DNA of 42,170 bases from Jimgerdemannia flammicorona (taxonomy: Eukaryota): positions 1-42,170 of the forward strand of contig RBNJ01000094.1 in NCBI GenBank assembly GCA_003990765.1, given 5' to 3'. A model generated the notes under the pieces. The model searched no databases. It worked only from the letters and a program-made list of their open reading frames with translations, and was not told the DNA's origin. A program made the position numbers and the translations under genes. This document shows positions 1,189 through 30,642 of the stretch, in pieces (the first letter of the stretch is position 1; each line of letters starts with the position of its first letter).

Positions 1189-1285
1189 GATTCGTACAAA
1201 CATTCGTTTAATATGTACCACACCATTTACTAAACATTGTATTGACATGTTTTGGTTGTTATAATTCGACAGAAACAATCTCATC
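1189..1285 (+). repeat. Diverged direct copy of 2505-2607
   Basis: TTCGTACAA..ATATGTAC.ACA..ATTTAC.AA.CAT.GTATTGACATGTTT...TTGTT.TAAT..GACAGAAA..ACAATCTCATC is shared between the two positions. Confidence 0.8.
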
Positions 1286-1675
1286 CCCATTCCCCCCCCC
1301 AAAAAAAAAAAAATAACCAAATGTGTGATACTGGTATTAAGAACTGTACAATATATATGTGATAGGTGGTAATACGCATTATATGACTTTGGTGTATAGT
1401 TATCCATGCTTACATTAAATTAAACTACCTATCTGTGATTTAATATACAGTTTTGTCAACCATGTACCATAATACCGAGTTGTAATCTTCTATCACACGC
1501 ATAAATATATTAAACTGAAATCCAATTCTGAAGAATTATAGATGTTTCATTTTGTTGTATTCACGATGCATTCAGACTGATTGTAAATGGGAAACACAAT
1601 GACACAATCATACGACATAGTTTGTATGATGAATTAATACCGAATTGTGATCTTTGTACTGTTACATTGTAAAGC

Positions 1676-2623
1676 ATGCCCAAAGTACAAGTAAGAAAGT
1701 CGTATAACCTGCGATCTAACAAGCTGCTACCACTACCACCAATACCAACACCAACACCAACACTAGCAGACGAATATATTCCTGTCAAATTTTCGATAAA
1801 TGAAAATGGCGAAGTCTGTTTCATTCTGATGAATACACCTAAATTCATCCAAATGATCTACAAAACAATAGAAGAAGTCAACACAAAACATGTTGATCTT
1901 CGAACTCAAATACATCAATATCTACTAAATGCATTCCCACCCGACGAAGGCGCCAATCTTGACCTGAGGCCACTTTATCATGAGTTTAGAAAAACACCAA
2001 TTTTCGAATTGAAAGTTGTAATCGATCAACTAGTTTGCAACAAGATATTTTTCCAGGATAGACAACACCAGTATTCATGGACTGAGCAAACTATTGTATC
2101 GACATCAGCACATATTACCGATTTCAAAGAATTGGAACTCCTCATACTAGATTTTTTGAGGGTTCAATTAGACGAGCGTGACATTAGCGAGACGGATGTA
2201 GACATGCTATATACAGAATTTGATATGAGGGGTGATGTAATCTTGGCATTACAACAACTGTATCACCAAGGCCTGATCCAAGATGTCGAAATTGATAAAA
2301 ATGAGAAACCCCGAATTCGTTTGTCTAGAGAACTAGTTGAAAGACTAGATGTTGAGCTAGCAGAGCCATTGACACCAGATAAAATAAAAATGCGACGGTT
2401 GTACATGACCGCCATATACAATCACATACCATTTGCACCATTCCACCCATGCAAAATATCGATAGTAGAAGACATTATTTCAATGATTAATGGTGAATTA
2501 CACCGGTTCGTACAAGATCACTTGATATGTACTACAATATTTACCAACCATCGTATTGACATGTTTGTTTGTTGTAATCTGACAGAAATGTGCATAACAA
2601 TCTCATCACAAATGGTCATTTGA
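1676..2623 (+). CDS. Hypothetical protein with two probable winged-helix domains (first resembles RPA32 C-terminal wHTH)
   Basis: Intact 315-aa ORF. LRTQIHQYLLNAFPPDEGANLDLRPLYHEFRKTPIFELKVVIDQLVCNKIFFQDRQHQYSWT and LELLILDFLR..DVILALQQLYHQGLIQDVE follow the helix-helix-helix-wing pattern. Confidence 0.5.
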   Translation: MPKVQVRKSYNLRSNKLLPLPPIPTPTPTLADEYIPVKFSINENGEVCFILMNTPKFIQMIYKTIEEVNTKHVDLRTQIHQYLLNAFPPDEGANLDLRPLYHEFRKTPIFELKVVIDQLVCNKIFFQDRQHQYSWTEQTIVSTSAHITDFKELELLILDFLRVQLDERDISETDVDMLYTEFDMRGDVILALQQLYHQGLIQDVEIDKNEKPRIRLSRELVERLDVELAEPLTPDKIKMRRLYMTAIYNHIPFAPFHPCKISIVEDIISMINGELHRFVQDHLICTTIFTNHRIDMFVCCNLTEMCITISSQMVI

Positions 2624-2925
2624 AATGCATCCCTGACAAACGAAACATGCGACATTGGTACTATGGTCACGCTAAATTTATATCTAGTTCTTAATGACCG
2701 TAATTATCTGCAATCAGCTTATGTTAAAATAAACAAATTTTTCCAAACACCATTATGTCAACTAACTTATTACTATGTCACACGTTTCACATAATTCTTC
2801 CATTGCGATTACATTGCAGTAGTAGCATCTTGTTTGGAGTATATTTCGTTGAACATAATATATCACGTCACTATTATAAATAATATAAGTCTAGTTGCGC
2901 CAACAGTCATCCAAAACATCCAGCA

Positions 2926-4410
2926 ATGTCGCAACTAGACCTCAACATGTTACATCTCAACATCTTACCCATACTACGTTTGAACAAATTCTTCATGCAA
3001 ATTATGGCTATTCTAAACCTAAATCCATATACACAGATGACATTGAAAGAAATCTTTACTGCAATTGGACAATACAACCTACCACATGTAGCCGGTACTA
3101 TGCAGGGTGCTATTCTCACTGCACATTCTATAGCTCGTTATAATGGTGTACCAGATCCTTTCGATGTCCAAGTATACCAAAGTGGATATATCCTCTTATC
3201 CATTGCCAAACATGTCCTCCCCGACAACGTTGTGGCGTCCTCACCGACAGCGGACGACAGCTGTGGATTATATACGACAAGTCCTAAGTGTACAGCCAGT
3301 AATATCACATACATTTCATCCGATACAAACTCCTCGATCAGTGTTGTGACTTCTTCGACCTCATCTATTGATTCAACAACTTACATGACAGCATCACGTT
3401 TTGCGATCGCCCAGCAAACCGGCTACATGTACCCATGCCTCCGTTCCGCGGGTCATACAAAGATTCTTCGAAATCAATGCGAAGATGTATTTTGTGTTGC
3501 TGATCTAAAATGATCAACAGCAATGACCACATTCGGACAGCTATTCGTGTTGGCAGATGGACATGGTGGTCGCGGGTGTACGCAGTTCTTTGTCAACACG
3601 ATCCCTAGTGCGATTGCAGAGCTGTGTGGTGGGTACGATTTGGAGGAGTTGGGTGACGCTAATATATAGCAATTGATAGCACACGAGATCAAGGAGCTAG
3701 TTAGGAGGCTTGATGACGAGTATTTGCATGGGTTGCACAACGGCGATGGGTGTACACTTATGCTGGCTATATTTCTGGGTGACTCGTGGCTCGTGCAGGC
3801 AAACGTGGGTGACTCACGCACTATCCTCATGTCTGCACCAGATGGTGTCCACAATCTTGATATCAACTTCGCCTCACAAGACCACAAACCATACCTCGGA
3901 TATATTGCCAAAAACGTACTAGCGAATGGCGGCGAATTCGTAGATGTATAGAATCGGGTCATCAATGTCAATTCTAAACATTTCCAAGGTGGTATCAATA
4001 CAATAGCCACACTCCGGAATGTACGTATCAGGGTATCCAAGAATGGGACATCGATAAATGTGGGGAGATCATGTGGTGATGCTGTGTTCAAACAGAATCC
4101 GACTGCAAGGATCATATCATGCAAACCAGATATCACGTTTATTGACATTGGTGGATGACAGCAGCAACAGTGACAACAGTGGTTCCTGCTCATGAGTAGC
4201 GATGGTCTGATAGATCACCTAGGATGTGGACATGTTGTCGACACACAGAATAAATGTATCGCAATGGCTGTCGAGGACCTTGTTGAGGCTGGTGAGGAGT
4301 GTGGTTATATTGTTAAATATCTTTGTAATCACGAGGGCAATCCCAACTTCTTTTCGTCTGTAATTCAAGCATATGATGATTGTACTGTTATATTAGTTGA
4401 GATAGTATAG
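2926..4410 (+). pseudogene. PP2C/PPM-family Ser/Thr phosphatase with N-terminal extension, 5 in-frame stops
   Basis: Single frame joining ORFs 2926, 3673 and 4192. Motifs: CED, LFVLADGHGG, DGCT, ANVGDSR, DHKP, VGRSCGD, LLMSSDGL, DDCTVILV. Stops at 3511 TGA, 3667 TAG, 3949 TAG, 4156 TGA, 4171 TGA. Confidence 0.92.
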
Positions 4411-4419
4411 TGAATTTAC

Positions 4420-4506
4420 TGTAACATCAGTGTCGGGAAAAGTGCATTCACGTGGATGGGATAATCCCGTCCACGTGAATGCACTTTCCCCGACGCTGAT
4501 GTCACA
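4420..4506. repeat. Dispersed palindrome copy 1 (87 bp, centre 4463)
   Basis: TGTAACATCAGTGTCGGGAAAAGTGCATTCACGTGGATGGGAT-A-ATCCCGTCCACGTGAATGCACTTTCCCCGACGCTGATGTCACA. Confidence 0.97.
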
Positions 4507-4554
4507 AGATAAGATATAACGAATGCATTTTCGTTGAATAAATCTTCCAAAACA

Positions 4555-5530
4555 ATGACTAACCAATGTGGATGCTACTGTTTTGAAAGCAGCTACAAAC
4601 TATGTCCGATCTCCAAACCGGTCCCTCTAGGTGTTGTTCGTACTCGCGCTGGAGCCAAAGGTGAGAGTTGTGTGTTATACTATTGTCTAGCCCTTTATTT
4701 ATTTCAATACTCCAGGTGTACAACCCTATAGATATCTTGAGGTGAATACCGCAATACAACTTCTGAATGAATGACTTGGGCATGGCTGGTCCTGCAAATA
4801 CAATGTAGATCATAGGATTGAGGTATTTGTTATGATGTCAATCCGTAAATTCATGTGGTCACGAAATACTAATCCAAATGTAGATGTTCCACAAATCCAC
4901 GGGATTGTGGGAGATTTATGTCGAAGTGACTGCCAAGTCCAAATACATCACGCCAAGCAACCAAACAATAGAACACGAAGTATGTATTTAGCTTACAACA
5001 GCTTCAACTACAACCACTGCTCCATCTAACATAATCTCAGGAATGTGGTGGATTTACACAATCCTCGCGGGTAAAAGGTACAGCGATGACAAATGCTAGA
5101 AAATCGGCCAACTCTGATGCGCTAAAACGAATTGCCGCAACATTCGGCATTACCGTTGTGGGCGAATCCGGCGATAATGATAACTATGTTGTTTGTGATA
5201 CGTTACATATGGCGGAGTTCCCATGCTCACACCTCGTTAATTTAAACATAATAGATACTGATCCCACCCCCCGTCTCTCCTCGCCCAAGTCAAGGTATTT
5301 GTCTCTTTCTTTTATATGTAGCTGTTTCATTTATATCCCATTATTAAGCTATACACATATTATTTTAGGATTGAACCGTATATTGATAGTGTTCAACAAC
5401 ATAGCACACACAGTACATACAGTAAGTATATATTGTACAAAATTAATAGAGCCGTATGGATATTAATTTTCCCACCACTTTCAAAATAGAATCCGATTCA
5501 GTTGATTATATAAATTACAACTGTCAATAA
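4555..5530 (+). pseudogene. Rad52/Rad22-family single-strand annealing protein, 6 exons, one premature TGA (4772-4774)
   Basis: Exons 4555-4660, 4716-4822, 4884-4979, 5041-5294, 5369-5421, 5490-5530 with phase-consistent GT-AG introns. Protein includes VVRTRAGAKGVQPYRYLEVNTAIQLLNE*LGHGWS..GLWEIYVEVTAK..NQTIEHEECGG..AMTNARKSANSDALKRIAATFGI, matching the Rad52 N-domain pattern (R.G..G....Y......I...NE.FG..GW..HED.G.G..KARKEA.TD.LKRA...FG). Confidence 0.85.
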
Positions 5531-5616
5531 ATAATATGTTTGGACATATGATCACAAATAAAGAAGACTTATAAACAGCTTGTAATTGAACAGCTTTATA
5601 CGTTGTTCACTACAAT

Positions 5617-7179
5617 ATGTCAACTCTCGCAGAAACACTATCTATGCCATTTATGGCTTTCAAACTCAATACAACAAATCCTATGATCAGCTCAGACAAT
5701 CTCACCAAACTCATCACTAGCAATAATGATATATGGACACTGTTGCCAAAAATGTTTCAGAAGATAGAGGAATTGTATCAAATTCGCACTTTTACTGCTG
5801 ATGGTAAAGTGACCTTTAGATATGGCGGGGACACGCCTTCGATGACTATCATCGTAAATACCATGGGTGCATATCAGACAACAACCAATGCCATGTCGCC
5901 AGGTACCAACGCAATTTACCAATCTATGGTACAGAAGCCATATGCATACCCATATGAGTCCCCATTCCCGAGGACCTCTGATGGATATGACGATGACCTA
6001 TTACATATGACAATGTCTCAACCTGTTGATGACATGGACATCGATCTGGTGGAGGTTTCCGTTGAAGAATCGCTACACGAGGATTCCGCTACAGAATTGC
6101 TACACGAGGATTCCGCTGCAGAATTGCTACATGAGGTTTCCGCCACAGAATCGCTACACGAGGTTTTCCCAGCTGATACAGAATTGCTACACGAGGTTTC
6201 CCCAGCTGACGCAGAATTGCTACATGAGGTTTCCACCGCAGAATTGCTATACGAGGTTTCCGCCACAGAATTGCTACACGAGGTTTTCCCAGCTGATGCA
6301 GAATTGTTACATGAGGTTTCTGCCACAGAATTGCTACACGAGGTTTCCACCAGAGAATCGCTACACGAGGTTTTCCCGGCCGATGCAGAATCACTACACG
6401 AGATTTTCTCAGCTGACACAGAATCGCTACATGAGGTTTTCCCAGCCGCAGAATTGCTACACGAGGTTTCACAAGTCAAAACAACACCCAGACATGGGCT
6501 CAGAACTCAGAGAGAAACTGCTACCAAAAGAGCAGATGACCCAACCAGAGCACGCCATAGACGACGACATGTTACAAACGGCCGGAGACAAATTAGTTGC
6601 AATTCGAATGAGACATCTTCAGAATCTGAGACAAGAAGTGACACAACAGCAGAGGAGGAGGAGTGTTTGTAGATGCTGCAAATTTTACATGCTATATATA
6701 CACACGCCAGGTGTATAGATCCAGACCAACCATTGGCCACCAGGATACGGCCAGAGAAGTTTATCAAATTGCCCATAGTGCAATCTGCGAGGTCTATCTT
6801 GGACAATGTGATGAATTGGTATAATCAGTTAGCGTCCAAATGTATTTTGGGTAGTATAGGGTTACGCCTTTATAGTATGAGCATCTGTGTCAAATATCTA
6901 CTATATCCGACTGATCTGAACAATTATCAATTGGGGTCATGGAGGGCGGTGTCCAATCAGCTCACCATACAGTACAATCAGCGCAACGCCAACGAGCTTG
7001 GTAAGTGGATTAGGTGTGGGTGGTGGTATCTCGTCTTGGCCAAGCTCTTCAACAGTGTATCTGTTGCGGCGTCATTGTGGAGAGCCACTCATATGTCAAA
7101 GATAACAAATTCAGAATTTAATGAACTGGTGACATATCTACGAATGGAGGACTGTGTTGTAGGTATATTTTTTTTATAG
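5617..7179 (+). pseudogene. Hypothetical protein with acidic tandem repeats and C-terminal helical domain; one in-frame TAG (6670-6672)
   Basis: ORFs 5617-6672 and 6673-7179 are in the same frame, separated only by a TAG. Confidence 0.65.
6064..6472 (+). repeat. Coding minisatellite, 14 copies of E(L/S)L(H/Y)E(V/D/I) units of 27, 30 or 33 bp
   Basis: Core CAGAAT(T/C)GCTACA(C/T)GAGGTTT repeated; all unit lengths are multiples of 3. Confidence 0.95.
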
Positions 7180-8868: not shown

Positions 8869-9702
8869 TTAAGTTGCTTTAAATACACGTCGTACTCGAA
8901 AAACATCAAGTATGCGCTGCATGATCTTGTCATGCAATCTCGTCCGGCTGACTACTACATGCACTAGCTTCTGCCGCACGGATATGTCATTGTGAGTATC
9001 GACAAATGTGTAAAATGAATAAAGGTCATGGAATTCGGCGACAAACGCAACAGCAGTTGCATGTGATATGTCTGGAATCTGTATCAGAAAATCTCGAAAT
9101 GCATGCTGACCGAGTCGTGTCTTGGGGACATGGACTATGGCCAGATAATCCTCAGGCAATGCCTTTGACCGATCCTTTTGAGCACATTTCAGCAGCCGTG
9201 CAACTGTGGTTGCTGTGTCTGCAATTGTTGTAGTTCTACACACGACAACATCATCACAACATAACTCCAATGAGATTGTTATGTGGTCGATATCTACAGA
9301 TGCACCCTCGAACAACAGGTAGATCTGCTGATTGGGGAATCGCATTTTTAGATTGTTGACATCGGTTGTCAGCCTATCGTGTGTTGTGTAGAGAATGACA
9401 ATGACACCCTTTTGTCGTGTGTCATTGTTGTTGTCACCACAATCCCAGCAAAGTATGCAGTAGAATGATGGTGATGGCCCATCGAGTTTGCGCCATTCGA
9501 ATACATCCACGTGCACACGTATTTTCGCTTCCAGTATCGACACTGCAGGTGTGTAAAATAGAGTGGGTGTCTGTGTGTGGGCAATGGCAGTGGTAGTGGT
9601 AGCAATACCAACAATGGTTGATGACACTCGAGAGTAAAAATGGCCCCCTCTTAAAACCTCTTCAGGGGATGGAAATTCAAAGTCGTCATCATCATCCGAC
9701 AT
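8869..9702 (-). CDS. EME1/Mms4-like protein (ERCC4-type fold without catalytic motif, plus C-terminal HhH region)
   Basis: Starts MSDDDDDFEFPSPEEVL. Core LKMRFPNQQIYLLFEG..VVVCRTTTIADTATTV. C-terminal FLIQIPDISHATAVAFVAEF..L...Y..RTRLHDKIMQRILDVF matches the EME1/MUS81 HhH pattern. No ERK motif. Confidence 0.7.
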   Translation of the reverse strand: MSDDDDDFEFPSPEEVLRGGHFYSRVSSTIVGIATTTTAIAHTQTPTLFYTPAVSILEAKIRVHVDVFEWRKLDGPSPSFYCILCWDCGDNNNDTRQKGVIVILYTTHDRLTTDVNNLKMRFPNQQIYLLFEGASVDIDHITISLELCCDDVVVCRTTTIADTATTVARLLKCAQKDRSKALPEDYLAIVHVPKTRLGQHAFRDFLIQIPDISHATAVAFVAEFHDLYSFYTFVDTHNDISVRQKLVHVVVSRTRLHDKIMQRILDVFRVRRVFKAT

Positions 9703-10231
9703 CTTGTATATTGAACGACTACTAGTGATTACTGGATATATATGTGTATGTGTGTGTATTGACAAAATAGGATCGTTGACTAGACGCAAGCCATTCAACT
9801 TGTGCAGGTTATGATCGGTTCAACAGTTTATTCATTTGATAGAATGATTTGATACTACTATAAAATGGTACCACATAGACCTGTAGCCACAGCAGCTACA
9901 GCTTGTAACAATAGTAGCATTGTTGCATTTGTTGACAATGTGTGTATCATTTCATTCATGGTTAAATACACTAAGTCATTGGAGTTAATATGCTCAGGTT
10001 GTGCCATAGGGGTGTAGTGGAGACTGAGTGGTGTGAATTTATATACATACATACCATTAGTCTACATGACATACTGAGTAATATTATATAAAAATAAATA
10101 CGATGACATTATACACATATTAGATTCCAAACACGTCTTGTCCCCGACGATGGTGTCATTATAAATTTGAAATGCGGTCACAACATGTAAAGAAATATAA
10201 ACCATGGTAAACTGTCTTAAAAAGCTACAAG

Positions 10232-10696
10232 ATGGCAATACAACGGAGACAAGCGATTGTTACTGGGGTGGATTCAACAACAATCCTTCAACCAACAGAT
10301 GCAATGATGGGGTCAAAATTAGGAGACCATCTCTGCAGTCATCTTGCCACAGAACTGTTGGAGTTTCAACGACTGGATGATTTTCTGCAGGTGTTTAAAT
10401 ACAAACTCAGATGGCAAATGTCTGGTGGGAATAGGAAACCCGGTGTTATCATCATGCTAGACAAGAAGGAGTATTGGAAATTCATCTGTCGCGGTATGCA
10501 AGTTGTCGATGATCTCGCAGACCTGAAAGCGACATTTCCAGACCACTGTATATGTATAATTCTGCAGGGTTTGACTAAATCTGTAAGAATAAACCAACGG
10601 ATAGTTGACGAGTGTAATGCCCATGAAATCGTTATTGAGAGGTCAAGAAATTCTCCAATAACGATTGAACGGGTCATCCAGTATTTGGCAATGTAG
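10232..10696 (+). CDS. Second, stand-alone ERCC4/EME1-like domain protein
   Basis: KPGVIIMLD..DDLADLKATFPDHCICIILQG aligns with KGVIVILYT..DVNNLKMRFPNQQIYLLFEG of the neighbouring gene. Confidence 0.55.
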   Translation: MAIQRRQAIVTGVDSTTILQPTDAMMGSKLGDHLCSHLATELLEFQRLDDFLQVFKYKLRWQMSGGNRKPGVIIMLDKKEYWKFICRGMQVVDDLADLKATFPDHCICIILQGLTKSVRINQRIVDECNAHEIVIERSRNSPITIERVIQYLAM

Positions 10697-10792
10697 TCCA
10701 ACAATTGTATATACTATGTAATAAATGGTGTTTATACATCACAGCCTCATCATATCTCAACTGCGACACACCACGATGCGCCTTTCACAACG

Positions 10793-11335
10793 ATGTCAAT
10801 TACAACCCAATTCAAAGATGATCTGGCAGCAATAATCAACGACATAGTGCTGCACGATGCATCCGTGGTCTGTGCCAATGGGCAGGTCATCGGTGTGTAT
10901 AGTGCGGTACTTGCTGTCTGTTGTCCACTGTTCTGAACTATGTTTTATGGCAATGTACATTCCAAGCAGGTCCTGCTGGACGATGTGTCTGTCGACATGT
11001 TACACTACATCCTGCACTTCTTGCATGCTGAGCGACTGCCAAAGATCATGGATACTGACATCGCTGAACTCTATTGTGTCACAGTTCATCTAGATCTGCA
11101 CAAGCTACAAACGCAGCTTGTGGTGCGACTGATTGCCAAATTGAATGGCGAGGGTGGTAGTGTGCGTGCAAGTGAGCTTTTCGACAGGGCTATTGCATTA
11201 CGAATTGATCCAATACGTACACGCAAATTCTATGATACGCTCATCCAGGCTCTACCAGCGCAAAATATTACAACTGTCCAGTTACAGGCACTGGCGGGGT
11301 TAATCAATAATATAGGTGTGATCAGAGGACAATGA
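10793..11335 (+). pseudogene. BTB/POZ-domain protein, in-frame TGA at 10934-10936
   Basis: DLAAIINDIVLHDASVVCANGQVIGVYSAVLAVCCPLF*TMFYG..VLLDDVSVDMLHYILHFLH. Confidence 0.85.
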
Positions 11336-13717: not shown

Positions 13718-13795
13718 TGTGATGTTGTCGTTGGGGAAAGTACATTCACGTGGACAGGATTATCCCATCCACGTGAATGCACTTTCCCCGACGCT
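13718..13795. repeat. Dispersed palindrome copy 2 (centre 13761; right arm shorter)
   Basis: TGTGATGTTGTCGTTGGGGAAAGTACATTCACGTGGACAGGAT-T-ATCCCATCCACGTGAATGCACTTTCCCCGACGCT. Confidence 0.97.
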
Positions 13796-20300: not shown

Positions 20301-20392
20301 TGCATCGTGAAATATGTAAGTTTGCAGAATTTCGCAAATTCGCATGTATTTCATTCACTAATAATAATAATCATCATCAACATCACTGGTAA
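17348..20392 (+). pseudogene. Family B DNA polymerase, Pol-delta-like catalytic subunit; two in-frame stops (17828 TGA, 18707 TAG), one intron 20088-20159
   Basis: ExoI LSFDIECRGHKGIFPEPEHDPVIQI, ExoII PDVLTGYMITKFDIPYL, ExoIII YCI*DA, region II YQGAKVL..LDYSSLYPTIMIDNNLCYST, region III QQAMKLCANSLYELTG, region I YGDTDSVMV, and C-terminal VLEDCLPIDQDYYL. All in one frame. Confidence 0.96.
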
Positions 20393-20788
20393 TAGTCATG
20401 GGTGACCATATGCATAGTGGCGGTCAGTCTTCGCTCAGAGATTTCTGGACAACTACTTCCTCTCAATAGTTGTAATCATACCACAGGTTTAAACTTCACG
20501 GCCTGAGGATAACATATTTGTACTATTATATTGAAAGTGTGAGGAAATGGTAGTGATTATCTAATATCTATATTGTTGTTACATTTCATTCATAAGAGTC
20601 TTCTGACTATTCACGACCAAGACCAGTCTTCCCTCTATTGTTTTGCATATGTATAACAAATTTGAGATATATAAAATATCGTTGAAATAATTATCGAACT
20701 CACTAATATAAACATTTGCAAATAATGGATATTTATTTGTTCATTTATAACATCTCTTGATAATACAAATTTATTCGAGATCCAAACT

Positions 20789-21202
20789 CTATTCATTTAC
20801 TATTGAGATATACCACTGTGCATTGTTATCTTCCTTAGATGTGAATATACAGTTGCCATCATCACTGCGTGCAATAATATCCCTATTGTAGGAGGCAGGC
20901 ACAATTTTCACAGCATCTCCTGAGATGATAGGGTATCCGTGTCCAAACAGGGTTGTTTTTTCCAACACCCATTTATCCAAATCATTCAACGTTTTTGGTG
21001 CTAATCCACACAGAACAGAAATAGGAAATGAAACAGTTTCACTGCGATAAAGATAGATCCCATCCTTAACAATATGGATGCACTCGCCATATAGGATTCC
21101 CGAGGAGTGTGGGGTTGTGTAATGCAGAGTCCATGGTATTTTGTCATTTGTAGTTGTTATGCGTGGATGTGTTGGGTCAAACTTGGTTTCCGATACAGTC
21201 AC
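20789..21202 (-). CDS. Hypothetical beta-rich protein (possible beta-trefoil); probable upstream exon near 21269-21348
   Basis: 137-codon ORF preceded by an intron-like sequence (CTAAC..TAG) and ending in AQWYI. The upstream exon phase does not fit, so the model is uncertain. Confidence 0.35.
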   Translation of the reverse strand: MTVSETKFDPTHPRITTTNDKIPWTLHYTTPHSSGILYGECIHIVKDGIYLYRSETVSFPISVLCGLAPKTLNDLDKWVLEKTTLFGHGYPIISGDAVKIVPASYNRDIIARSDDGNCIFTSKEDNNAQWYISIVNE

Positions 21203-21442
21203 TATTGATACAATAATCAGTTAGTAAAACAAAATGGAATTTATATCTTTAAGTTGCATTATACATACAGTATATCACACTCTGGATTTTGCAAGTTTAG
21301 TGGTTGTGTAGTAAAATACACCTTGTTACCAGAGCTAATTTGTGCCATAGAGGTTGATAGTAGCTCAGAGCATAGGTAGGCGAGAACTACCTTAGATATG
21401 AAATACTTTAATGACATACTGAGTAATTATAAAGTGTGTCAT

Positions 21443-21525
21443 TCACGTCATCGTCAGGGAAAGTGCATTTATGTGGATGGGATTATCCCGTCCACATGAA
21501 TGCACTTTCCCCGACAATGACGTGA
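21443..21525. repeat. Dispersed palindrome copy 3 (83 bp, centre 21484)
   Basis: TCACGTCATCGTCAGGGAAAGTGCATTTATGTGGATGGGAT-T-ATCCCGTCCACATGAATGCACTTTCCCCGACAATGACGTGA. Confidence 0.97.
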
Positions 21526-21772
21526 CCGCCTTGTGTGCCTAATGGCTGTTGAGTTATCACTATTATCCTTCTTTAGAAGTACTATCATTCACGTACAACA
21601 CATATTGGGAAGATCAACATTGCTATTAAGACATGTGGCGAATGCTTTGCATTTGTGTCTATACATAGTACCGAGTTATATAGTTATACCATAGTATTGA
21701 CAGTCCCTAAGCTGACCATGGTTTACAATAAATAGCAGGTGTAGATATGCCGGAATCAACACTAACACCACC

Positions 21773-22503
21773 ATGCAAACCTCAGTGTGCCTCCTAGCTG
21801 AAATCTGTGCCTTCATCATCAACGATTTTAAATATATAGATCTGCTTCACTGCATGGATATTTCACCCACATTCTACTCTGAGGCAACTAGACATCTATG
21901 CATACAGCATGGCTTTGATCAAGACTCTGACCCAGAACTCTATCGGGCATTGAGGGCAGTCATTATACAAACAAAGGTCAGCATGCAGGGGGTAATGAAG
22001 CAGCGTTTGAATGCCTTTCTTGATCGCATGGTGTGCGAACAGTCATTTTGCGATGTACAAGTGACGAGGCAGTCGCAGCTGCCATGAGGATCATCTATAC
22101 GTTTGGGCCATTTGTGATGTAACTATACAAATGCGACCCATCAATGTACAGCCGAATTCGGTGGTGTCTGTACCACATAGCCAACCTCAAGGCGTTTGCT
22201 GTCGCCAGGTACCGCATCACCCATGAAAAATGCCACCTAGAGTATGACTTTGTTGATATACACAAACAAATTAACGCCAACAACAATCTGTCATTTTGGC
22301 TGTACTTTTTGGGTGATACTGAAACATCACAAATTATGTGTGCTAAATATAGAATAGTTCAGAGCTCCCCAGAATACATTTTCGGGAAGAGTGTTGATGT
22401 ATCAGAACTAGTATTTGATTGTGAGAGAACACTCCGCCGTATTACCCAATTGATTGCTCTTATTGACAAAAAAATGACAACCATCATATCAAACAATGAA
22501 TGA
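21773..22503 (+). pseudogene. F-box-like protein, frameshifted
   Basis: CLLAEICAFIINDFKYIDLLHCMDISPTFYSEATRHL fits an F-box (P>L). Continuation in ORF 22144-22503 is in another frame. Confidence 0.55.
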
Positions 22504-22701
22504 TGGTGGAGATTTGACAGAGTGTGTATATATGTACCTGAATGTCATTCTCTATCTCACTGTCGCAATGGACAAAGCATCATCACAAGGTACTTGTGTG
22601 AGATTTGTATCTGAACTGCATAGTATATATGTTAAGATATATATTTATAAATATATATAATATTCCCACATTTAGTAGTACCATCTACATTTGAACTGCT
22701 A

Positions 22702-23928
22702 GTGCTCCCACTCAAAATTATTCGGGAGATCTGGAAATGCATACAGACCGACCTCTCATTTGACCAGCTTGATTATCTGGCATTTTTGTTAGTTTCCTTT
22801 ACATGGTGGAATGCTACTCAGGATATTCAACTACCAAATCGTGTCTGGGAACTCAGTACATCACCGGTGCATCTTCAGAGGATTCTCGAAGAGAACAAGC
22901 ATCATAGATTCGGCTACAACACACAGATTAGCAGACATGCGATTGACCTCACTGGTATAATGCAAGATCACGATGTGTGTACAAGGGTGTGGCTCGATGC
23001 GCAGGTGGCCGTCCTGCAGATGCTGCCGAATTTACAGGTGTTGACAATCTCATGGACAACTCCTATCAGGCGGGAGCTGTATGCGATTGTGCAGCAATAT
23101 TTCAGTAGCATCGTCAATGCATGTCACACACATCTGACCCATCTGGAGTTCCACGGCCCACCCACTGGAGACTCTGTCAAACTTCCACACTCACTTATTG
23201 ATTCTTTTGCAAGCAAGCTGCGATGTCTCGAATTCCACAATCTTCCATTTCCCAACACCCGCGATGGTGTGCTAACCAATTGCATGAACTTGCAGGAGTT
23301 TACAATCTGCAATATTCAAACTGATTTGGATCCATCCATTGTTGTCCACTGGCCAAATCTCCAATGTCTTACCATTACCCAACATCCAGATGACCCGCAT
23401 GACCCCTACAGCTCTGATATCTTTCATCCGACAATTAGTGATGAAAATCAGCAGTATCTTTTGGAGAATCTTACAGGGTGCATCCATCTGCATCATTTTA
23501 AAATGTACTATGCTGGTGCATTCGCCGCCATGTGGGACATCGGACCATCCAGCAAATCAATTTGCGACCTTGTCGTGCATTGACAGTTTGATATATTCTG
23601 CATCTACAGCTAATATATTGACAATGATGTCATCTTAGCATTGGCAATAACCCAGCAGCACTATCTTCATTACCTCAAGCTAGGAAATAATTGCTATTCG
23701 GATCAGATGGATACCTGAGAAGCCAACTGGGGCTGGCCAGAATTGGAAGAACTGGATTTCGAGCATTTTAATGTGTCCGAGTCGTTTCTGGTCCAAGTTA
23801 TACAAAGTTGTACAAGGTTGACACATGTACGGCCATTGATTTCGGAAGATGCCCCAGATACAGCATTGCGCAATCTGGGGTTTGTTAATGAGTCCACCAG
23901 CGGATTCTATATGCATCATATTGTGTAA
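22702..23928 (+). pseudogene. F-box/LRR protein with three in-frame stops from 23581 onward
   Basis: LPLKIIREIW..LLVSFTWWNA F-box. LRR-type LPNLQVLTI, CMNLQEFTI, WPNLQCLTI, WPELEELDF, CTRLTHV continue in the same frame to TAA 23926-23928. Confidence 0.8.
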
Positions 23929-24229: not shown

Positions 24230-24312
24230 CCATGTCATCGTTGGGGAAAGTGCATTCACGTGGATGGGATTATCCCATCTACGTGAATGCACTTTTCCCA
24301 ACAATGACATGG
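24230..24312. repeat. Dispersed palindrome copy 4 (83 bp, centre 24271)
   Basis: CCATGTCATCGTTGGGGAAAGTGCATTCACGTGGATGGGAT-T-ATCCCATCTACGTGAATGCACTTTTCCCAACAATGACATGG. Confidence 0.97.
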
Positions 24313-24575: not shown

Positions 24576-24986
24576 ATGAAGAAACTACCGCAGTCTGTCA
24601 AACAACCACGTCAAACCAATGAGACCAAACAGTCTGCTGTAAGTAGAGGTATTAGTCCTGTTTAGTGCTACATGTCATACACACACACACACACACTGCT
24701 AAATCCGGATTTGTGCATTCTCCAGAACTGTATTGCCACAAGAAAAAGTAGGATGCGAATAAAGCAATGTACTCAAGAACAGAATAAACATATTGGAGTT
24801 CTGGAAGCCAAGATTATAGATCTTCTCAAAAAGAATGAAGAGTATCGTATACAGTTATCGACTGTGTTGACAGAAAATCATCTGTTTAAAACAACTATAA
24901 TGCCAATTGTCAAACATATTGTATTTGATCTCGAGAGAGATCAGGTTCCATCCCCATGTGACATGGCGCTGTTTGGGTTGTATTAG
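24576..24986 (+). CDS. Small bZIP transcription factor (2 exons; intron 24639-24725)
   Basis: Exon 1 MKKLPQSVKQPRQTNETKQSA, phase-0 GTAAGT..CAG intron, then NCIATRKSRMRIK (N-x7-R basic motif) and a heptad zipper LEAKIIDLLKKNEEYRIQLSTVLTENHLF. Confidence 0.75.
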
Positions 24987-25043
24987 GATAAATGTCAAAA
25001 TAAAATGGTATAACCCATTGGACAAATACTCTTAAACTATACA

Positions 25044-26093
25044 ATGGCTGTTGCAATGCGAAGTATGAGAGCAAGAACGCGGTCGCAGATGCGTGGACAA
25101 CCATGGATTGCAAGCTATGATGTTCTATCTAAGAAGCGAGTGTGGCAACGTCAGGTAACACTGTTGCAAACTGATAATACAGTTGATGATATTGCAATGA
25201 CAGTCATTGCAACGCCAATGACGATATCAACAATACACCCATTACCGTCACCACCAAGCATCTGTACAACCGATACCACAACAATCTGCATTGTGGCTAT
25301 TATGGCGGTTACAACAATATGCGCTGCTACTCCGGCAGTTATAACAATATGCACTGCTACTCTAGCAGTTACAACAATATGCGCTGCTACTCCAGCAGTT
25401 ACAACAATATGCGCTGCTACTCTGGCAGTTACAACAATATGTGCTGCTAATATAGCAGCTACAATAATATGCACTGATACTTCTGTAGCTACAACAACAA
25501 CAGACACTGCTACTACAGCTACAACAAAAAAAGTCCAAAGACAAACCCAGTTGTTAACCAGACTGCATAATATACACGACAGGTTGAGTATAGATCCCAC
25601 CATTAACAATACCATTGTTAACGATCACAATGTGGGCATCATTCGGGCAAATCTATACAACATTCGACTAGCTGCATACATTGCACAATATCAATATTTG
25701 CATAATATCAATACGCTAACTCCGAGACAGAAGGGTTGTATGTTCTTTGAGGCAGAAAGGACGTTTCGCGACACACAGTTGAAGAGCACAGACAAACCTA
25801 TGGAAATATATAACTTTGATAGCAAGTATCGCAGTGCCCGAGCAACATATCTTCGTTTTGTTCAGCAGTTTGGATTTGGTGTTGTGCTTATCTCCAAAAC
25901 CACCATAGGCAGTTTTGTTGATATATCACAGACATTACTGGATGCAAATATGCCCAATACTACAGTAGTATCACAATATTATATGAAATTTACTAGTGCA
26001 CATTGTAGAACAGCTATTATTGGGGAGCTAGTGAAGATCATCAATGATCTGACTAAAGTTGAAGCTGAGTTTGTAATGATGTTTGGTATATAG
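25044..26093 (+). CDS. Hypothetical protein with Thr/Ala repeats and C-terminal helical domain
   Basis: Intact 349-aa ORF. Confidence 0.6.
   Translation: MAVAMRSMRARTRSQMRGQPWIASYDVLSKKRVWQRQVTLLQTDNTVDDIAMTVIATPMTISTIHPLPSPPSICTTDTTTICIVAIMAVTTICAATPAVITICTATLAVTTICAATPAVTTICAATLAVTTICAANIAATIICTDTSVATTTTDTATTATTKKVQRQTQLLTRLHNIHDRLSIDPTINNTIVNDHNVGIIRANLYNIRLAAYIAQYQYLHNINTLTPRQKGCMFFEAERTFRDTQLKSTDKPMEIYNFDSKYRSARATYLRFVQQFGFGVVLISKTTIGSFVDISQTLLDANMPNTTVVSQYYMKFTSAHCRTAIIGELVKIINDLTKVEAEFVMMFGI
25304..25500 (+). repeat. Coding minisatellite, 30-bp unit (AVTTICAATP/L), about 6 copies
   Basis: GCAGTTACAACAATATGCGCTGCTACTC.. in tandem. Confidence 0.9.
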
Positions 26094-26305: not shown

Positions 26306-27016
26306 ATGGCATACTGTACGAGATTCACAACTCAGAAGGTGGCTATCGCAGCGGGGTGTAAAAATGGAACTTGTAGTCCATCCCCCGCTATCTTAGCAGG
26401 GGGTAAAAAAAGAACTCGTAGTTCACCCCCTGCTATCTTAGTGGGTGAAAAATGAACTCGTAGTTCACCGCCAGTAGATGATGACAATGACGGTTCACAA
26501 TCACATATCAGTGAAACTCCATCCAAAGAGTTTGATGTTAACCACACAACACAAAGTGAGTATATATATATATATATTATATATACATAATTATTGGTAC
26601 ATATTATCTAATTCTAACATATATTCATAGACCGAGATCTAAACAGAAACCAACTAGCTGATGAAATACAAGAATTGAAGAATATCATCACATCTATCAA
26701 CAATCGGAATTTGAACGTGGGAAAACAAATGGCTAAACTACGTGGAAGAATACAGAGCCTGGAACGCATAATTGCCAAATCTCAGTATACGGAGATAGAG
26801 ATAGACTTAAATCGTGAAGATGTGGATATATTTAAAACACACACCCTTGCAAGTTTGGAATATGCGAATACACGTGCGACAAGGATTTTAAATCGGCTAG
26901 ATTATATAGAAACACGAATTGATGACCTAGAGAGTACGAGCCACTCTGAGTTGTCAGGTACTATAGATGATAATGATACTGAGAGTAGTTACAGATCAAA
27001 ATGCCAACAAAAATAA
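26306..27016 (+). pseudogene. Coiled-coil protein with 3x ~45-bp repeat (AILAGGKKRTRSSPP); intron 26556-26630; in-frame TGA 26453-26455
   Basis: ATG 26306; a phase-1 GTGAGT..CATAG intron splices in frame to ORF 26675-27016 (heptad pattern). The stop lies where the adjacent repeat has Arg. Confidence 0.6.
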
Positions 27017-27343: not shown

Positions 27344-30062
27344 TCATTCAGAAGTTTGTTTGCGTTTTGTTTCTGCTGCGACATGATCTCTTTTTAAGAG
27401 TACCGTCATTCATCTACAACACATATCTGGAGTTCTACCTGGAATGTCCACCAAAATTGTTATCCAACTGCATCCATGCTCATTGTGACATTGGTGCAAC
27501 AGTATATCTTCGTCAGATGTCCATTGTGTCTTCTTCTTAATCGATACACCTAAAGCATTTTCTCATCTATATTGATAGTTATGACTCTCCTTCCCTGGAA
27601 TCGTAGATGCTATCTTCTCCCACTGACGACCATGTAGTGTATATGCCTTCCACAACAGTTTGTCATCATCCTTTGTCCATGTAGTAGTAGTTTTGATATC
27701 GCTTGTTACAGCTGTTGAGATATATCCTCTAGGCTTAGTACATAGATATCTGTAGATATTATACAATTACAAATTAGAATATAGGCATATATTATATTTC
27801 TGTAAAATTCAATAATAGCATACCTAACCAAGGCCTCTCTCTTTTGTATATTGGGAACTGTTTGAATAATATCATCAATTATAGTAGATGATACACCAAC
27901 AACGACTGGTCCATTTTCTATTAAAATTGTCGTAGCTCGTTGTTCAAGCTCTGCGGCAGTTGTCTGTTTAGATATCTCATAATGTTCAAGTTTGAGTGTG
28001 CGCACTCTTATAAACCACAATAGCTTTTGGTATTGTTTGAGCAGATCAGGTGCCTCTTTGGTCTAATAAATAGTAAGAGAGTGTATATATATGTGAGGAG
28101 ATGATGATGATGTATTAGATATTCTAAAAAAATAAAACCCTTACTAGATAGTGCCATCTTCGTATCCCTAACGGATTTAGTTTTTTTTTTAATTTAGCTA
28201 CATCTTCCTTCCATTTAATGATGGTAGTATCTGTCTCTTAGAGTCGCTGTTGAGTTGTCTTGGATTGAAGTACAGGTGATGGGATCTGTACTAGTGGAGC
28301 CCTGAATGCAATCACATCATCGTGATGTTGTGCTGAGGCATCAGAACCTAACATCGCTCCCATTATGTTAACACCTACTGGTCGTGTATAGTACATATGT
28401 AACATATTAGATTTGGGTGAGTGATATAGTGCTTGCTTTGCTTTGGCATCTCCAACCCTCTTGGAAATTGCATCAGCTGCACTTCGGTGAAACATATAGG
28501 CTGAAAATGACTCTATATAAACAGAGTTCTTATTAGAAATATGAACATAGATTAATATACCATATATATACATTATTATATATACCTGCATATCCAGCCT
28601 TTTGTGCGATAAGTGATAAAAAACTATCAAACAAATTTGTTGTAAGAGGACTATTTCCAGCAGCATTCTGAAATACTGTAGTGTTCAGTATCTCTGGTGC
28701 CCATTCAATAGTGGTATATTTAGACTGAAATAGATCTTCCAGAGTTGTGAATGCTTTAAAGGCACTACATCGAATAGCCCAGGTGATAAGCATAATGATA
28801 GGACACAGGTCTAGTTTTTGGGCATCCTGTACTGGTTGTATAATCCATGAAAGTCTGTGTAATAATAATAATAATAATAATAAATTAATATAATATAAAT
28901 ATTTACATAGACCAATTATAAATATTATACATACGGTGCTTTGCCTCCTTTCACAGTACGAAATACTATTGTTGCATGGAAAACTGGACCCAGTTTATCT
29001 AATCCCTCATATGTCAGCTTGATGTCCTATATCAAATCATATATCAATATCTCTCAAATAATATTGTGTGTGTGTGTATGTGTTAATAAATAAATAAATA
29101 AAATACCAAACATACACTCCATTTCAAGGCTCTGTCATGTTGATGGTGTATAGTACTTGAAATAAGAGATCCTGGCCAGACGGCTGTAAACATCATTAAC
29201 AGCCACAGTGTAATGTGTTTAAATGTAAGATCCCAGTCACGGTTATTTTTGTGTGCCTCCTGCACCAAAACATGAAGCTCTGATTCACCAATAAATGTTT
29301 TAGGCTTTTGAGTTGTTGTAAGATTGCGCTGAGTTGCAATCATATCAACTGCCTGCAAAATAATATATGTATTTAATTTAGTTGATATGTATATATAATA
29401 AAACATCTCTATAAGTAATAATAATAACAATTATTCATACTTGGGTAATTTGTATTTTATCACCATCAGAGAGTTGAAAGTGTTCGACATCTTTCCATAG
29501 CTATAATAACAAATATTAGAACAAGTCTAAATAATATTATAAATAAAAAAACGAATTGGATAATATACATACTAGTTTTAGTAATAACGTCTTAGTTGTC
29601 ACTAAATATTCCTTCGACATAGGTGTTTTATTCGGGCTTAATGTTGTCATTGCTTTCGCAATCAGGAAGCTCTTTATATTGTCTGAGAATGAAATATAAT
29701 GTTAGTAAAAATAAATAAATAAATAAATATATGAGATGCTCGCAGATGTCAGCAATTATATTTTACATACCCACAGTCGCATGTTGAATAGTCCATGCTG
29801 CCGCCTTTGAAACTCCATTAGCTTCCATATACTCGTTCCATTGTCTAGTAACTAGGTCGTGGTTCCGTTTGGTTAATGGTGATCTCGTATCAAAGTCGTT
29901 GGCTTGTGTACTTAGAGTCTTGATTTCCGTGAGTTCGCTGGCACCCAGGAGTGCAAATTTGTTCAATCGTCTTGCACCGGGGGGTTTGGGGCTCACCCGT
30001 CTCGCCGCACGGGACAATTCTGTGCTCTTGGTTGAAGATCCTCTCTGTTTTACAGGAGCCAT
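27344..30062 (-). pseudogene. Multi-exon tyrosine recombinase, DUF3435/Starship captain-like, with two C-terminal Myb/SANT repeats; inactivated
   Basis: Motifs in order: LLMMFTAVWPGSL (R>W of RPG), ALKWS|DIKL, FRTVKGGK, LDLCPIIMLITWAIRCSAF, SAYMFHRSAA, ALYHSPKSNMLHMYY. Then WTKDDDKLLWKAYTLHGRQWEKIASTIPGK..YR*ENAL and WTSDEDILL..HGCSWITI..IPGRTPDMCCR*. Introns 28513-28585, 28063-28144 and 27729-27823 are phase-consistent. Three in-frame stops. Confidence 0.8.
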
Positions 30063-30073
30063 AGTTGGAAGAG

Positions 30074-30123
30074 GTGGCAGTGGTGGTGGTGGTGGTGGTG
30101 GTGGCGGTGGTGGCGGCGGTGGT
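30074..30123. repeat. (GGT/GGC)n microsatellite just upstream of the recombinase ATG
   Basis: About 16 trinucleotide units. Confidence 0.95.
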
Positions 30124-30158
30124 AGTAAAGAGTAAACAACTATCCTTGTGGAAATAAA

Positions 30159-30273
30159 ACATCCGGTCCACATCCCCGTGCATACTGGGGCACACGCCGG
30201 ATGTGCCGGTGTAATCCGGATTACGAACACGTGTCCGCAATATTGCGGACTACTACGATTAATCTGACCCGGG
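30159..30273. promoter_or_regulatory. CpG-rich cluster of adjacent short palindromes upstream of the recombinase
   Basis: ACATCCGG(30159)..CCGGATGT(30197), GTAATCCGGATTAC 30211-30224, ACACGTGT 30227-30234, GTCCGCAATATTGCGGAC 30233-30250, GATTAATC 30257-30264, CCCGGG 30268-30273. Regulatory function is inferred. Confidence 0.55.
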
Positions 30274-30642
30274 ACCCACGGGTGTCGCGGGTGTCTCAAA
30301 ACTTCAGGCTCGAGTTTGGGAATGGTGTCGTGAGTCGGAATGTGTGTCGCGGATGTGTTGGTGGAATAGGAATGGATGGGAAATCAGTTTATAATTTCAT
30401 TTTGTAAGAGTGTTGGAAGCGATGGGACACATTATGAAATCGGCGCTTTGATTTAAAGTGCGTGAGTCGGGGACGACTTTAAGAAACTTTCAAACAAGAG
30501 TTATTACCTTCCCGCCCACTCATTTGGACGGTCGATTTTGGTGAGTTAGACTGATATTGTATAATGGATAATGCATATGTGCAGATAAAATCGTCACACC
30601 GTTATTGCAGGCCAATTAAATAAAAATAGCATACAATTACAT

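Follow-up and report, generated by a model that had tools for sequence, protein, structure and literature searches.

The window analyzed in the present work is a stretch of 42,170 nt from the genome of Jimgerdemannia flammicorona (Endogonales, Mucoromycota), which contains no undetermined bases (0 N) and is organized in a eukaryote-like manner, with GT...AG introns, fungal-type branch sites, and many split open reading frames (ORFs). It harbors, between 1.2 and 30.5 kb, an AT-richer island of about 29 kb, the candidate mobile element discussed here, which is located between the gene of a glycoside hydrolase (GH31) and that of a UDP-glycosyltransferase (UGT) (Table 1). The two flanking genes are convergent and have a GC content of 45–62% in the pair; the GC content of the island is mostly 30–45% (with an observed/expected CpG ratio of 0.56–0.93), compared with 50–60% in both flanking genes. 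All the multi-exon genes that can be recognized in the island possess GTATGT/GTAAGT...YAG introns, which fits a nuclear expression. A preliminary description of this locus had placed between two ordinary enzyme genes, both of which were recovered by the profile searches, a tyrosine recombinase, a family-B DNA polymerase (PolB), several recombination genes, and four long palindromes, and had interpreted the whole as a self-replicating intermediate between a Starship and a virus or plasmid.

The tyrosine recombinase is indeed the outermost gene of the island on the UGT side, and it is transcribed inward. Its frame is open across seven exons (444 codons), with the donors GTATGT/GTATGA/GTATAT, and exons 6 and 7, scanned separately, match the Pfam DUF3435 profile collinearly (profile positions 99–158 and 193–254). 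The comparison with DUF3435 that the preliminary description had suggested was passed: P0122, an annotated two-exon protein of 189 residues corresponding to exons 6–7 of the window and 100% identical to the exon 6 query, matched the family with E=2.2e-11 (43.8 bits, with a cut-off of 25.8). A second copy from the same species, P0123, lies on a contig of 2,444 bp and matched DUF3435 with E=2.4e-6; it differs from the window recombinase in 24 out of 194 aligned residues (88% identity) and has a Gln where the window ORF ends at TAA. Moreover, P0123 runs past the recombinase into a sequence that in the window leads, via one further intron, to two Myb/SANT repeats; judging from this continuity of sequence, the recombinase gene probably includes the repeats as its C-terminal exons. 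Two TGA codons, at 27563 and 27410, fall at what we take to be the last conserved tryptophan of each repeat. The box I region of the recombinase reads TAVWPGSL; if the motif is, as we assume, T-G-x-R-x-x-E-L, the position of the catalytic arginine is occupied by Trp, and this first catalytic arginine appears to have been replaced as via a CGG-to-TGG change. No GCR1_C match was retrieved from the window by Pfam scans of the ORFs and of the six-frame read-through, the C-terminal DNA-binding part being of the Myb type. Immediately upstream of the start codon, a (GGT/GGC)n microsatellite (30073–30120) reads on the minus strand as a proline run inside an upstream ORF, and the segment from 29.8 to 30.4 kb has a GC content of 49–55%, unlike the other parts of the island.

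A gene of this kind recalls CryptonF elements, known from Zygomycota (Rhizopus), in which a recombinase is joined to a GCR1_C DNA-binding domain and which have 6-bp terminal direct repeats (Kojima & Jurka 2011, PMC3212892); the Cryptons drawn in the portion of that article available to us encode the tyrosine recombinase protein and at most one more (a DDE transposase or a C48 peptidase). The window shares with CryptonF a recombinase gene that is interrupted by introns and encodes a DNA-binding domain at the C-terminus, but this domain consists here of two Myb repeats (E=5.3e-13) rather than GCR1_C, and about 26 kb of further genes are located inboard of the recombinase. The locus might, in principle, be a composite one, in which a small Crypton-type transposon of about 3 kb (recombinase-Myb) was inserted next to genes unrelated to it, namely decayed duplicates of host origin (a Pol delta paralog, Rad52, EME1, PP2C, and BTB) that the recombinase does not move and whose repair genes do not serve replication. 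We regard this explanation as doubtful, even though it is the main competing one and has to be taken seriously: the one-protein layout of CryptonF is matched here, and the 2.4-kb contig of P0123 is what a short, high-copy repeat would be expected to give, whereas the position of the recombinase, exactly at the edge of the AT-rich island and facing inward, is not accounted for by a chance neighborhood.

The second main gene of the island is that of the polymerase. The frame 17348–20088 matches both DNA_pol_B_exo1 (PF03104, E=3.6e-44) and DNA_pol_B (PF00136, E=2.8e-77), and its best solved relatives in the PDB are the catalytic subunits of Pol delta (E about 1e-80), so that the assignment made in the preliminary description is well founded; PF03175, the protein-primed type of PolB, found no match in the window. 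Two short 3' exons restore the conserved tail of the protein (...LPID..YYL...F.P..G...GDH...), which ends about 25 residues past GDH. In cellular Pol delta, the C-terminal CysA/CysB module is the site where the partner subunits are bound; no match to this module (zf-C4pol, PF14260) was found in the window, spliced 3' exons included. The island polymerase possesses the exonuclease and polymerase domains and, unlike POLD1/Pol3, lacks PF14260. Two in-frame stops (TGA 17828 and TAG 18707) interrupt the gene, and its motif B reads NSLYELTG, with a glutamate in place of the glycine of NSLYGLTG in P0124. The latter is a protein of 313 residues that J. flammicorona encodes on another contig, 1,543 bp long, and 37 of the 270 residues compared differ from the window sequence (86% identity).

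Apart from P0124, the relatives listed for the polymerase are distant. A word-indexed search scored 7,999 candidates, 902 of which had E<=0.001; the best 120 of these 902 are of the Pol delta type, with 33–39% identity. A full HMMER scan gave 12,691 matches at E<=0.001, and among the best 150 listed only P0124 is close, the others sharing no more than 41% identity. The best 80 of the 577 confirmed viral PolBs from IMG/VR are 26–30% identical to the island polymerase. Furthermore, two other proteins of J. flammicorona, P0273 and P0126, share 88% identity, and each has 47–49% identity with the Pol delta of Mucorales and 37–38% with the island polymerase; since the Pol delta enzymes of Phycomyces and Botryobasidium share 64% identity, P0273 and P0126 represent a second diverged, multi-copy Pol-delta-like family rather than the housekeeping gene. 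The zinc module found no match in these two proteins, nor in P0014, an ENA metagenome protein from a 6.5-kb contig.

Three trees were constructed from rows hand-picked among the matches (30 rows, 153 rows with FastTree, and 32 rows; P0124 was omitted from the two later ones). In all of them, a branch with 100% support sets the sampled viral PolBs apart, with the island polymerase on the Pol delta side, and the island polymerase groups with P0273/P0126, joined by P0014 in the two larger trees. The support of this clade is 92% in the 30-row tree (Shimodaira–Hasegawa-like approximate likelihood ratio test, SH-aLRT; PolB with P0273/P0126, P0014 being unresolved), 99% (local) in the 153-row tree, and 90% (SH-aLRT) in the 32-row tree, the first joining of the island polymerase with P0273/P0126 being flagged as a meeting of long branches. 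Neither a grouping of the island polymerase clade with Mucoromycota nor one with fungi as a whole is rejected by approximately unbiased (AU) tests (p=0.3 and p=0.4, respectively). According to these data, the polymerase is, as far as its sequence tells, derived from Pol delta, either through capture from the fungal host or as part of an older mobile lineage. That a fungal origin is left standing by the AU test is in line with a composite locus; the polymerase itself, however, is multi-copy, with a divergence between copies similar to that of the recombinase (86% and 88% identity, respectively), which an island unrelated to the transposon would not lead one to expect.

Between the polymerase and the GH31 side, the island harbors a set of recombination genes. 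The ORF at 7750–8841, which had been overlooked in the preliminary description, retrieved Pfam YqaJ (E=0.005, profile positions 1–145 of 150), the RecE-like PHROG_434 (E=1.6e-4), and TIGR03033 (E=6.9e-4) over the same residues (about 72–246), all the matches being under the curated cut-offs (17.5 with respect to 22 bits; 19.7 with respect to 68 bits). In the ESM Atlas, it falls near YqaJ clusters at 0.95–0.96; among the six rows shown, five consist mostly of Nucleocytoviricota and one mostly of Uroviricota. The word-indexed search yielded 0 cellular homologs from 2,069 candidates, the PDB sequence search only two chance-level matches, and the single-sequence AlphaFold2 model had a mean predicted local distance difference test score (pLDDT) of 35.3, too low for a fold assignment. 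The Rad52-like gene, already noticed in the preliminary description, matches Pfam Rad52_Rad22 (PF04098) in two collinear exons (profile positions 29–54, E=0.071, and 91–128, E=1.5e-4, the latter with 22.2 bits and a cut-off of 20.3) as well as TIGR00607 (E=0.0034); its TGA at 4772 interrupts the stretch LLNE*LGHGW. As for the pair of EME1-like genes that had been proposed, the ORF at 8872–9705 resembles, by language-model similarity, EME1-MUS81_C clusters of the ESM Atlas, with 0 Pfam and 0 PDB sequence matches, and the second, weaker one (10211–10693, plus strand) is tied to it only via BLASTP (E=1e-4).

Both nuclease-type ORFs, at 7750–8841 on the minus strand and at 10232–11335 on the plus strand, run into a BTB-type segment, which is weak and in the same ORF in the former and solid and across single stops in the latter; this hints at nuclease–BTB fusion proteins in the intact element, as far as can be read from the frames. 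With regard to the several ubiquitin-system genes listed in the preliminary description, one BTB domain stands (E=1.4e-10) and a second, BTB-like one is weak (E=0.009), whereas the RING-like and LRR calls found no significant profile match; the wHTH protein that had been listed matched no family in Pfam, PHROG, or NCBIfam. BTB, like EME1 and the PP2C phosphatase encoded near the GH31 side, is an ordinary eukaryotic family, as captured or duplicated host genes next to a small transposon would be; the YqaJ-type exonuclease, with no detectable cellular homolog (0 matches) and viral Atlas clusters as the nearest ones, does not fit such a derivation.

Another possible reading is that the island is a fragment of an endogenous large DNA virus (unknown or Nucleocytoviricota-like), which was integrated by a recombinase, later invaded by introns, and is now decaying. 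The composition of the Atlas rows just mentioned is in agreement with it, and a polymerase, an exonuclease, and an annealase together make up a typical viral replication-recombination module; decay by many stops is typical of endogenous viral elements, and we take BTB, PP2C, bZIP, and Myb genes to be common in giant viruses and the family of intergenic palindromes described below to recall baculovirus hr elements and herpesvirus origins. On the other side, no capsid, packaging ATPase, viral transcription factor, helicase, primase, or rve family was retrieved from the window by the Pfam, PHROG, and NCBIfam scans of the ORFs and the six-frame read-through, in keeping with the preliminary description, in which no capsid, packaging ATPase, or helicase had been recognized. 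The locus thus differs from Nucleocytoviricota in that the major capsid protein, the A32 ATPase, VLTF3, and the D5 primase-helicase were all missing from the same scans, and in the separation of its polymerase from the sampled IMG/VR PolBs, both in identity and in the 100%-supported split. Moreover, fungal-type spliceosomal introns occur in every recognizable multi-exon gene, and the island measures only 29 kb and lies between two host genes. The placement of the polymerase, the introns, and the lack of virion genes speak against a viral fragment, which we consider improbable.

Four palindromes (P1–P4) are dispersed within the island, as the preliminary description had indicated. They are 65–87 nt long, with arms of 32–43 nt that are 88–93% complementary and separated by a 1-nt spacer, and they share a core of about 57 nt, GGGAAAGTGCATTCACGTGGATGGGAT.ATCCC.TCCACGTGAATGCACTTTCCCC. 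The arm motif occurs eight times in the 42 kb (allowing up to three mismatches), always within P1–P4, with 0.00 occurrences expected from 100 shuffles. As single strands, the four sequences fold with -28 to -42 kcal/mol (z -9.9 to -13.3). Symmetric positions pair in 84.9% of the cases across P1–P4, and 4 out of 500 shuffles attained the observed covariation score (0.226), which is a modest sign that the symmetry itself has been kept. Each palindrome is located upstream of a plus-strand ORF. A location of all four between divergent genes was considered and rejected, since the ORF 3477–4214 on the minus strand is the antisense of the PP2C pseudogene, which places P1 between two plus-strand genes. 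The cores CACGTG and ACGTCA presumably represent sites of the bZIP/bHLH type, and shared regulatory sites are accordingly the simplest reading of the palindromes. By analogy with the baculovirus hr and the origins (ori) of herpes simplex virus, with which they share the dispersal of long palindromes between genes, a role as origins is possible. Their confinement to the island argues that its 4–24 kb part is one co-evolving unit rather than a set of random paralogs, and four near-identical palindromes that are dispersed in the island and absent elsewhere in the contig speak against a composite locus; the 26–30.5 kb part, which embeds the recombinase-Myb gene, contains none, as such a locus would predict.

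The copy in the window is a dead, pseudogenized relic. Twelve in-frame stops have homology on both sides: five in PP2C, one in Rad52, one in BTB, two in PolB, and three in recombinase-Myb. Eleven of them are TGA or TAG and one is a TAA (Gln in the paralog); three further single stops (6670, 10694, and 16832) split ORFs of the same frame. The homology-supported stops, together with the mutated motif B of the polymerase, imply that this copy cannot replicate itself. An alternative genetic code for the in-frame TGA/TAG was rejected, as the exonuclease, PolB, and other ORFs end at TAG/TGA and P0123 has Gln at the TAA of the window. Among the differences from the paralogs that a single base change explains, 34 have A/T in the window where the paralog has G/C, and 14 are in the opposite direction; repeat-induced point mutation is not claimed as the cause of the decay, the dinucleotide indices being unremarkable in the island (TpA/ApT 0.58–0.91) and the excess of GC-to-AT changes (34 vs. 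14) being the only indication. The stops, the PP2C pseudogene, the Myb repeats, and the multi-copy status had all escaped the preliminary description.

The second copies of the recombinase (P0123) and of the polymerase (P0124) on other contigs indicate repeated DNA, and the similar divergence of the two pairs is what co-mobilized genes would show. A single-copy status, which the preliminary description had named as a result that would contradict it, is thereby removed for both genes. The same observation bears on the simplest explanation of all, namely that nothing here is mobile and that the region belongs to the ordinary host genome, its genes being paralogs and pseudogenes specific to the lineage. 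It would agree with an island having neither defined ends nor an empty site and with families that are all eukaryotic or possibly host-derived; against it stand the DUF3435 recombinase, the further gene copies located on short contigs, the family of palindromes, and the difference in composition from the two flanking genes, and we judge it very improbable.

Table 1. Features of the island and of its flanking genes in the J. flammicorona window (positions refer to the 42,170-nt window; a dot in the strand column denotes features without orientation).
Feature	Position	Strand	Evidence and remarks
GH31 glycoside hydrolase gene, 3' end, host-like (left flank)	431..1188	+	Pfam Glyco_hydro_31_3rd E=1e-10 (in 580-1188); GC 45-56%
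85-nt stretch right after GH31 stop codon	1191..1275	+	Recurs at 2507-2588, 80% identity, self-BLAST E=1.3e-9; repeat families D1, D4, D5
316-residue ORF	1673..2620	+	Last codons overlap second 85-nt repeat copy; no Pfam, PHROG, or NCBIfam match
PP2C phosphatase pseudogene	2884..4407	+	Pfam PP2C E=1.8e-18, read through with X; stops 3511, 3667, 3949, 4156, 4171
Palindrome P1, 43-nt arms, 91% complementary	4420..4506	.	48 nt upstream of Rad52-like ATG; DNA hairpin -42.4 kcal/mol, z -13.3
Rad52-like annealase gene, several exons (at least three introns), ATG 4555	4555..5466	+	In-frame TGA 4772 inside the conserved N-terminal domain
ORF with about 14 tandem 9-11-residue repeats (ELLHEVS...)	5590..7179	+	In-frame TAG 6670; no family match
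Lambda-Exo/YqaJ-type PD-(D/E)XK exonuclease ORF, 364 residues	7750..8841	-	Profile libraries and ESM Atlas; weak BTB-like C-terminus (E=0.009)
EME1/MUS81-C-like ORF, 278 residues, intact	8872..9705	-	ESM Atlas EME1-MUS81_C clusters, 0.93, 198 shared features
Weaker EME1-like ORF (to 10693), then BTB/POZ domain in same frame (10850-11135)	10232..11335	+	Pfam BTB E=1.4e-10, read through; stops 10694, 10934
ORFs without family match	11872..13382	-	Pfam, PHROG, NCBIfam, six-frame scans
Palindrome P2, 32-nt arms, 88% complementary	13729..13793	.	
Two ORFs, the first Cys/His-rich	13998..15446	+	No profile support (Pfam)
428-residue helical ORF	15911..17194	-	In-frame TGA 16832; weak TPR_12 E=0.039
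Pol-delta-like family-B DNA polymerase, three exons	17348..20469	+	Exons 17348-20088, 20173-20315, 20396-20469
143-residue ORF without family match	20792..21220	-	Pfam scan
Palindrome P3, 41-nt arms, 90% complementary	21443..21525	.	
ORFs with weak LRR match only	21716..23583	+	LRR_4 E=0.037
Palindrome P4, 41-nt arms, 93% complementary	24230..24312	.	Upstream of bZIP-like ORF
bZIP-like ORF (weak), then ORF with 10-residue tandem repeats	24666..26093	+	bZIP_2 E=0.0053; repeat family D1
Three tandem 42-45-nt units, each with internal inverted repeat	26342..26472	.	Repeat scans
Two Myb/SANT repeats	27386..27679	-	Pfam Myb_DNA-binding E=5.3e-13, two stretches, read through with X
DUF3435 tyrosine recombinase gene, seven exons, 444 residues	28238..30062	-	Exons 30062-29771, 29682-29573, 29500-29441, 29352-29116, 29026-28935, 28854-28586, 28512-28238
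UDP-glycosyltransferase gene, host-like (right flank)	30643..32753	-	Pfam UDPGT E=3.7e-24 (in 30643-31596); GC 51-62%, observed/expected CpG about 1.0

The remaining ORFs of the island matched families weakly or not at all (Table 1). Two of those without a family contain in-frame tandem repeats, namely 6052–6470 (27–33-nt units, ELLHEVS type) and 25266–25527 (30-nt units, TTICAA type). The choice of the coding strand by a codon-usage score was discarded because sense and antisense ORFs were not separated by it. The tandem units at 26342–26472, having the form GGGG.GTAAAAA.GAACT.GTAGT.CA.CCCC, are placed between the repeat-protein ORF and a coiled-coil ORF; they could represent protein-binding sites or an internal boundary. 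At the other edge, the two copies of the 85-nt repeat (1191–1275 and, 1.3 kb downstream, 2507–2588) bracket most of the orphan ORF at 1673–2620, and the pair may represent an old target duplication or a separate small insertion.

Beyond the UGT gene, the segment from 33000 to 38000 is very AT-rich (GC 28–39%) and without long ORFs, with an observed/expected CpG ratio of 0.17 at 34–36 kb and several short tandem repeat families at 35.8–36.4 kb. It is followed by a partial retrotransposon (38347–42170) that runs off the contig end; one of its ORFs is Gag-like and includes a CCHC zinc knuckle (E=9.6e-5), and another has a dUTPase domain (E=1.6e-12); its CpG ratio of 0.13–0.33, far lower than that of the remaining contig, suggests methylation-linked C-to-T decay.

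On the whole, we favor, with a confidence somewhat short of even, the reading that the 1.2–30.5 kb portion of the window is a dead copy of a repeated nuclear mobile element of J. flammicorona, roughly 29 kb long, whose intact relatives move by means of the recombinase and are copied by recombination-primed synthesis. In yeast, break-induced replication depends on the resection of ends and on Rad52, Pol delta, and Mus81-Mms4/Eme1. A corresponding set of genes is found here; it is multi-copy (the recombinase and PolB are each present at least twice in the species), it is tied together by a family of palindromes, and it is closed at one end by a recombinase, which is why a single large mobile element is preferred. 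The identities of the genes, their introns, the palindromes, the decay, and the second copies of the two genes are established by the data, whereas the unity of the island, its ends, and the whole of the replication mechanism are inferred. According to this model, an intact element would carry at one end the inward-facing, Starship/Crypton-type DUF3435 recombinase fused to Myb DNA-binding repeats, and in its body a private kit for recombination and DNA synthesis, composed of an exonuclease of the lambda-Exo/YqaJ type (5'-3'), an annealase of the Rad52 type, one EME1/Mus81-C-like protein or two, and a Pol-delta-like polymerase devoid of the C-terminal module, besides bZIP-like, BTB, and PP2C proteins as putative regulators or adaptors. 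The recombinase would excise and integrate the element; the exonuclease, the annealase, the EME1-like nuclease, and the polymerase would then copy it through a synthesis similar to break-induced replication, a recombination-primed mode that would need neither a primase nor a replicative helicase of its own. The palindromes would act as shared promoter/enhancer sites, probably bound by the bZIP or Myb proteins of the element, and possibly also as origins.

Several points weigh against this interpretation. The copy is dead, and the island has no defined termini, target-site repeats, or empty site: repeat scans and self-BLAST did not find a terminal repeat pair joining 1.2 kb with 30.1–30.6 kb, and no tRNA, 5S, or other Rfam RNA gene was found at either island edge, so that such a gene as the integration target was rejected. 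Furthermore, a second copy of full length was not seen: P0123 and P0124 are located on separate short contigs, and the linkage of recombinase and PolB is known from this one dead copy. The window scans retrieved no helicase, primase, origin-binding protein, or capsid. The AU tests are compatible with a simple origin from a fungal Pol delta, and the repair genes might have been captured from the host as paralogs that take no part in the replication of the element, just as the gene joining a recombinase with a DNA-binding domain, which by itself fits the small CryptonF layout, may be an unrelated neighbor. As for the palindromes, the covariation comes from four sequences, and the count of pairs changed on both arms (9 out of 48) was reached by 45 out of 500 shuffles; the arm gave 0 matches in IMG/VR and JGI metagenomes. 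The same collections yielded no close relative of the polymerase (17 pattern matches in metagenomes, 0 confirmed).

A comparison with known systems brings out both the affinities and the peculiarities of the locus. Like the Starships of Pezizomycotina, it has a DUF3435 recombinase that is outermost and inward-facing in a multi-gene island of tens of kb, eukaryote-type cargo, and repetition in the genome. Unlike them, its host belongs to Endogonales (Mucoromycota); ORF and six-frame Pfam scans of the window found no DUF3723, FRE, PLP, or NLR genes, which are common, even if not obligatory, in Starships; and its genes include those of a DNA polymerase and of a recombination kit, whereas "DNA polymerase" has 0 occurrences as a term in the available portion of PMC9156397. 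That founding survey, as far as the same portion goes, queried only Basidiomycotina, Saccharomycotina, and Pezizomycotina, and Starships, discovered in Pezizomycotina, seem unique to filamentous Dikarya according to the accessible part of a further article (PMC13465315).

Moreover, an integrase or recombinase combined with its own family-B DNA polymerase is shared with Polintons/Mavericks and casposons. Polintons and casposons possess a protein-primed PolB together with an rve integrase or Cas1, respectively, and Polintons also have capsid genes; the island differs from Polintons/Mavericks in its Pol-delta-like PolB (PF00136 and PF03104, with PF03175 unmatched), in its tyrosine recombinase, and in that no rve, capsid, or packaging ATPase gene was found. 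With the two-component recombinases of viruses and phages (lambda Exo-Beta, RecET, and the herpesvirus UL12-ICP8), it has in common a YqaJ/lambda-Exo-type exonuclease accompanied by an annealing protein and a polymerase, but the annealase is here of the eukaryotic Rad52 type and the genes contain spliceosomal introns. Finally, the four activities with which cells carry out break-induced replication (a nuclease for resection, Rad52, Pol delta, and Mus81-Eme1/Mms4) are encoded together within about 16 kb; unlike their cellular counterparts, the genes are highly diverged, multi-copy, and pseudogenized, the polymerase has no CysA/CysB, and no cellular homolog was found for the exonuclease.

The literature search retrieved no tyrosine-recombinase element with a Pol-delta-like polymerase and no work joining Jimgerdemannia with giant viruses or Starships, even though supplements may list DUF3435 matches from Mucoromycota. 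The linkage of a recombinase, DNA polymerase/recombination genes, and palindromes is, hence, unreported within the literature searched, as the preliminary description had supposed, and rests on one dead copy. Of the self-replicating intermediate between Starship and virus or plasmid proposed there, the outermost, inward-facing DUF3435 gene, the polymerase with its recombination kit, and the multi-copy status have held, while the copy proved to be dead and the link with viruses weak. With considerable doubt, we suggest that the intact relatives might form a new class, that is, a Starship-like element of early-diverging fungi that integrates by a tyrosine recombinase and copies itself via a polymerase of its own, derived from Pol delta, and a private set of break-induced-replication proteins (exonuclease, Rad52, and EME1-like), with palindromic origin/enhancer sites; P0273/P0126 and P0014 would be further members of it.

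Even in a conservative reading, these data document that a fungal genome can contain Pol-delta-like polymerases that are multi-copy and truncated at the C-terminus, together with an exonuclease of the YqaJ type, and they carry a warning for annotation, in that such "DNA repair genes" are repeats and pseudogenes and not the machinery of the host. In the literature covered, as far as the accessible portions of the sources go, giant cargo-carrying recombinase elements (Starships) are confined to Pezizomycotina, and none is described as having its own replicase. If the linkage described here recurs in intact copies, giant recombinase elements would extend to Mucoromycota, and a eukaryotic transposon would be found to bring its own machinery for recombination-dependent DNA synthesis, a concrete candidate for a continuum among transposons, plasmids, and viruses in fungi. 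The new class, if it exists, would represent the recombinase-based counterpart of the self-synthesizing Polintons and casposons and possibly a stage in which giant transposons of fungi resemble plasmids or viruses.

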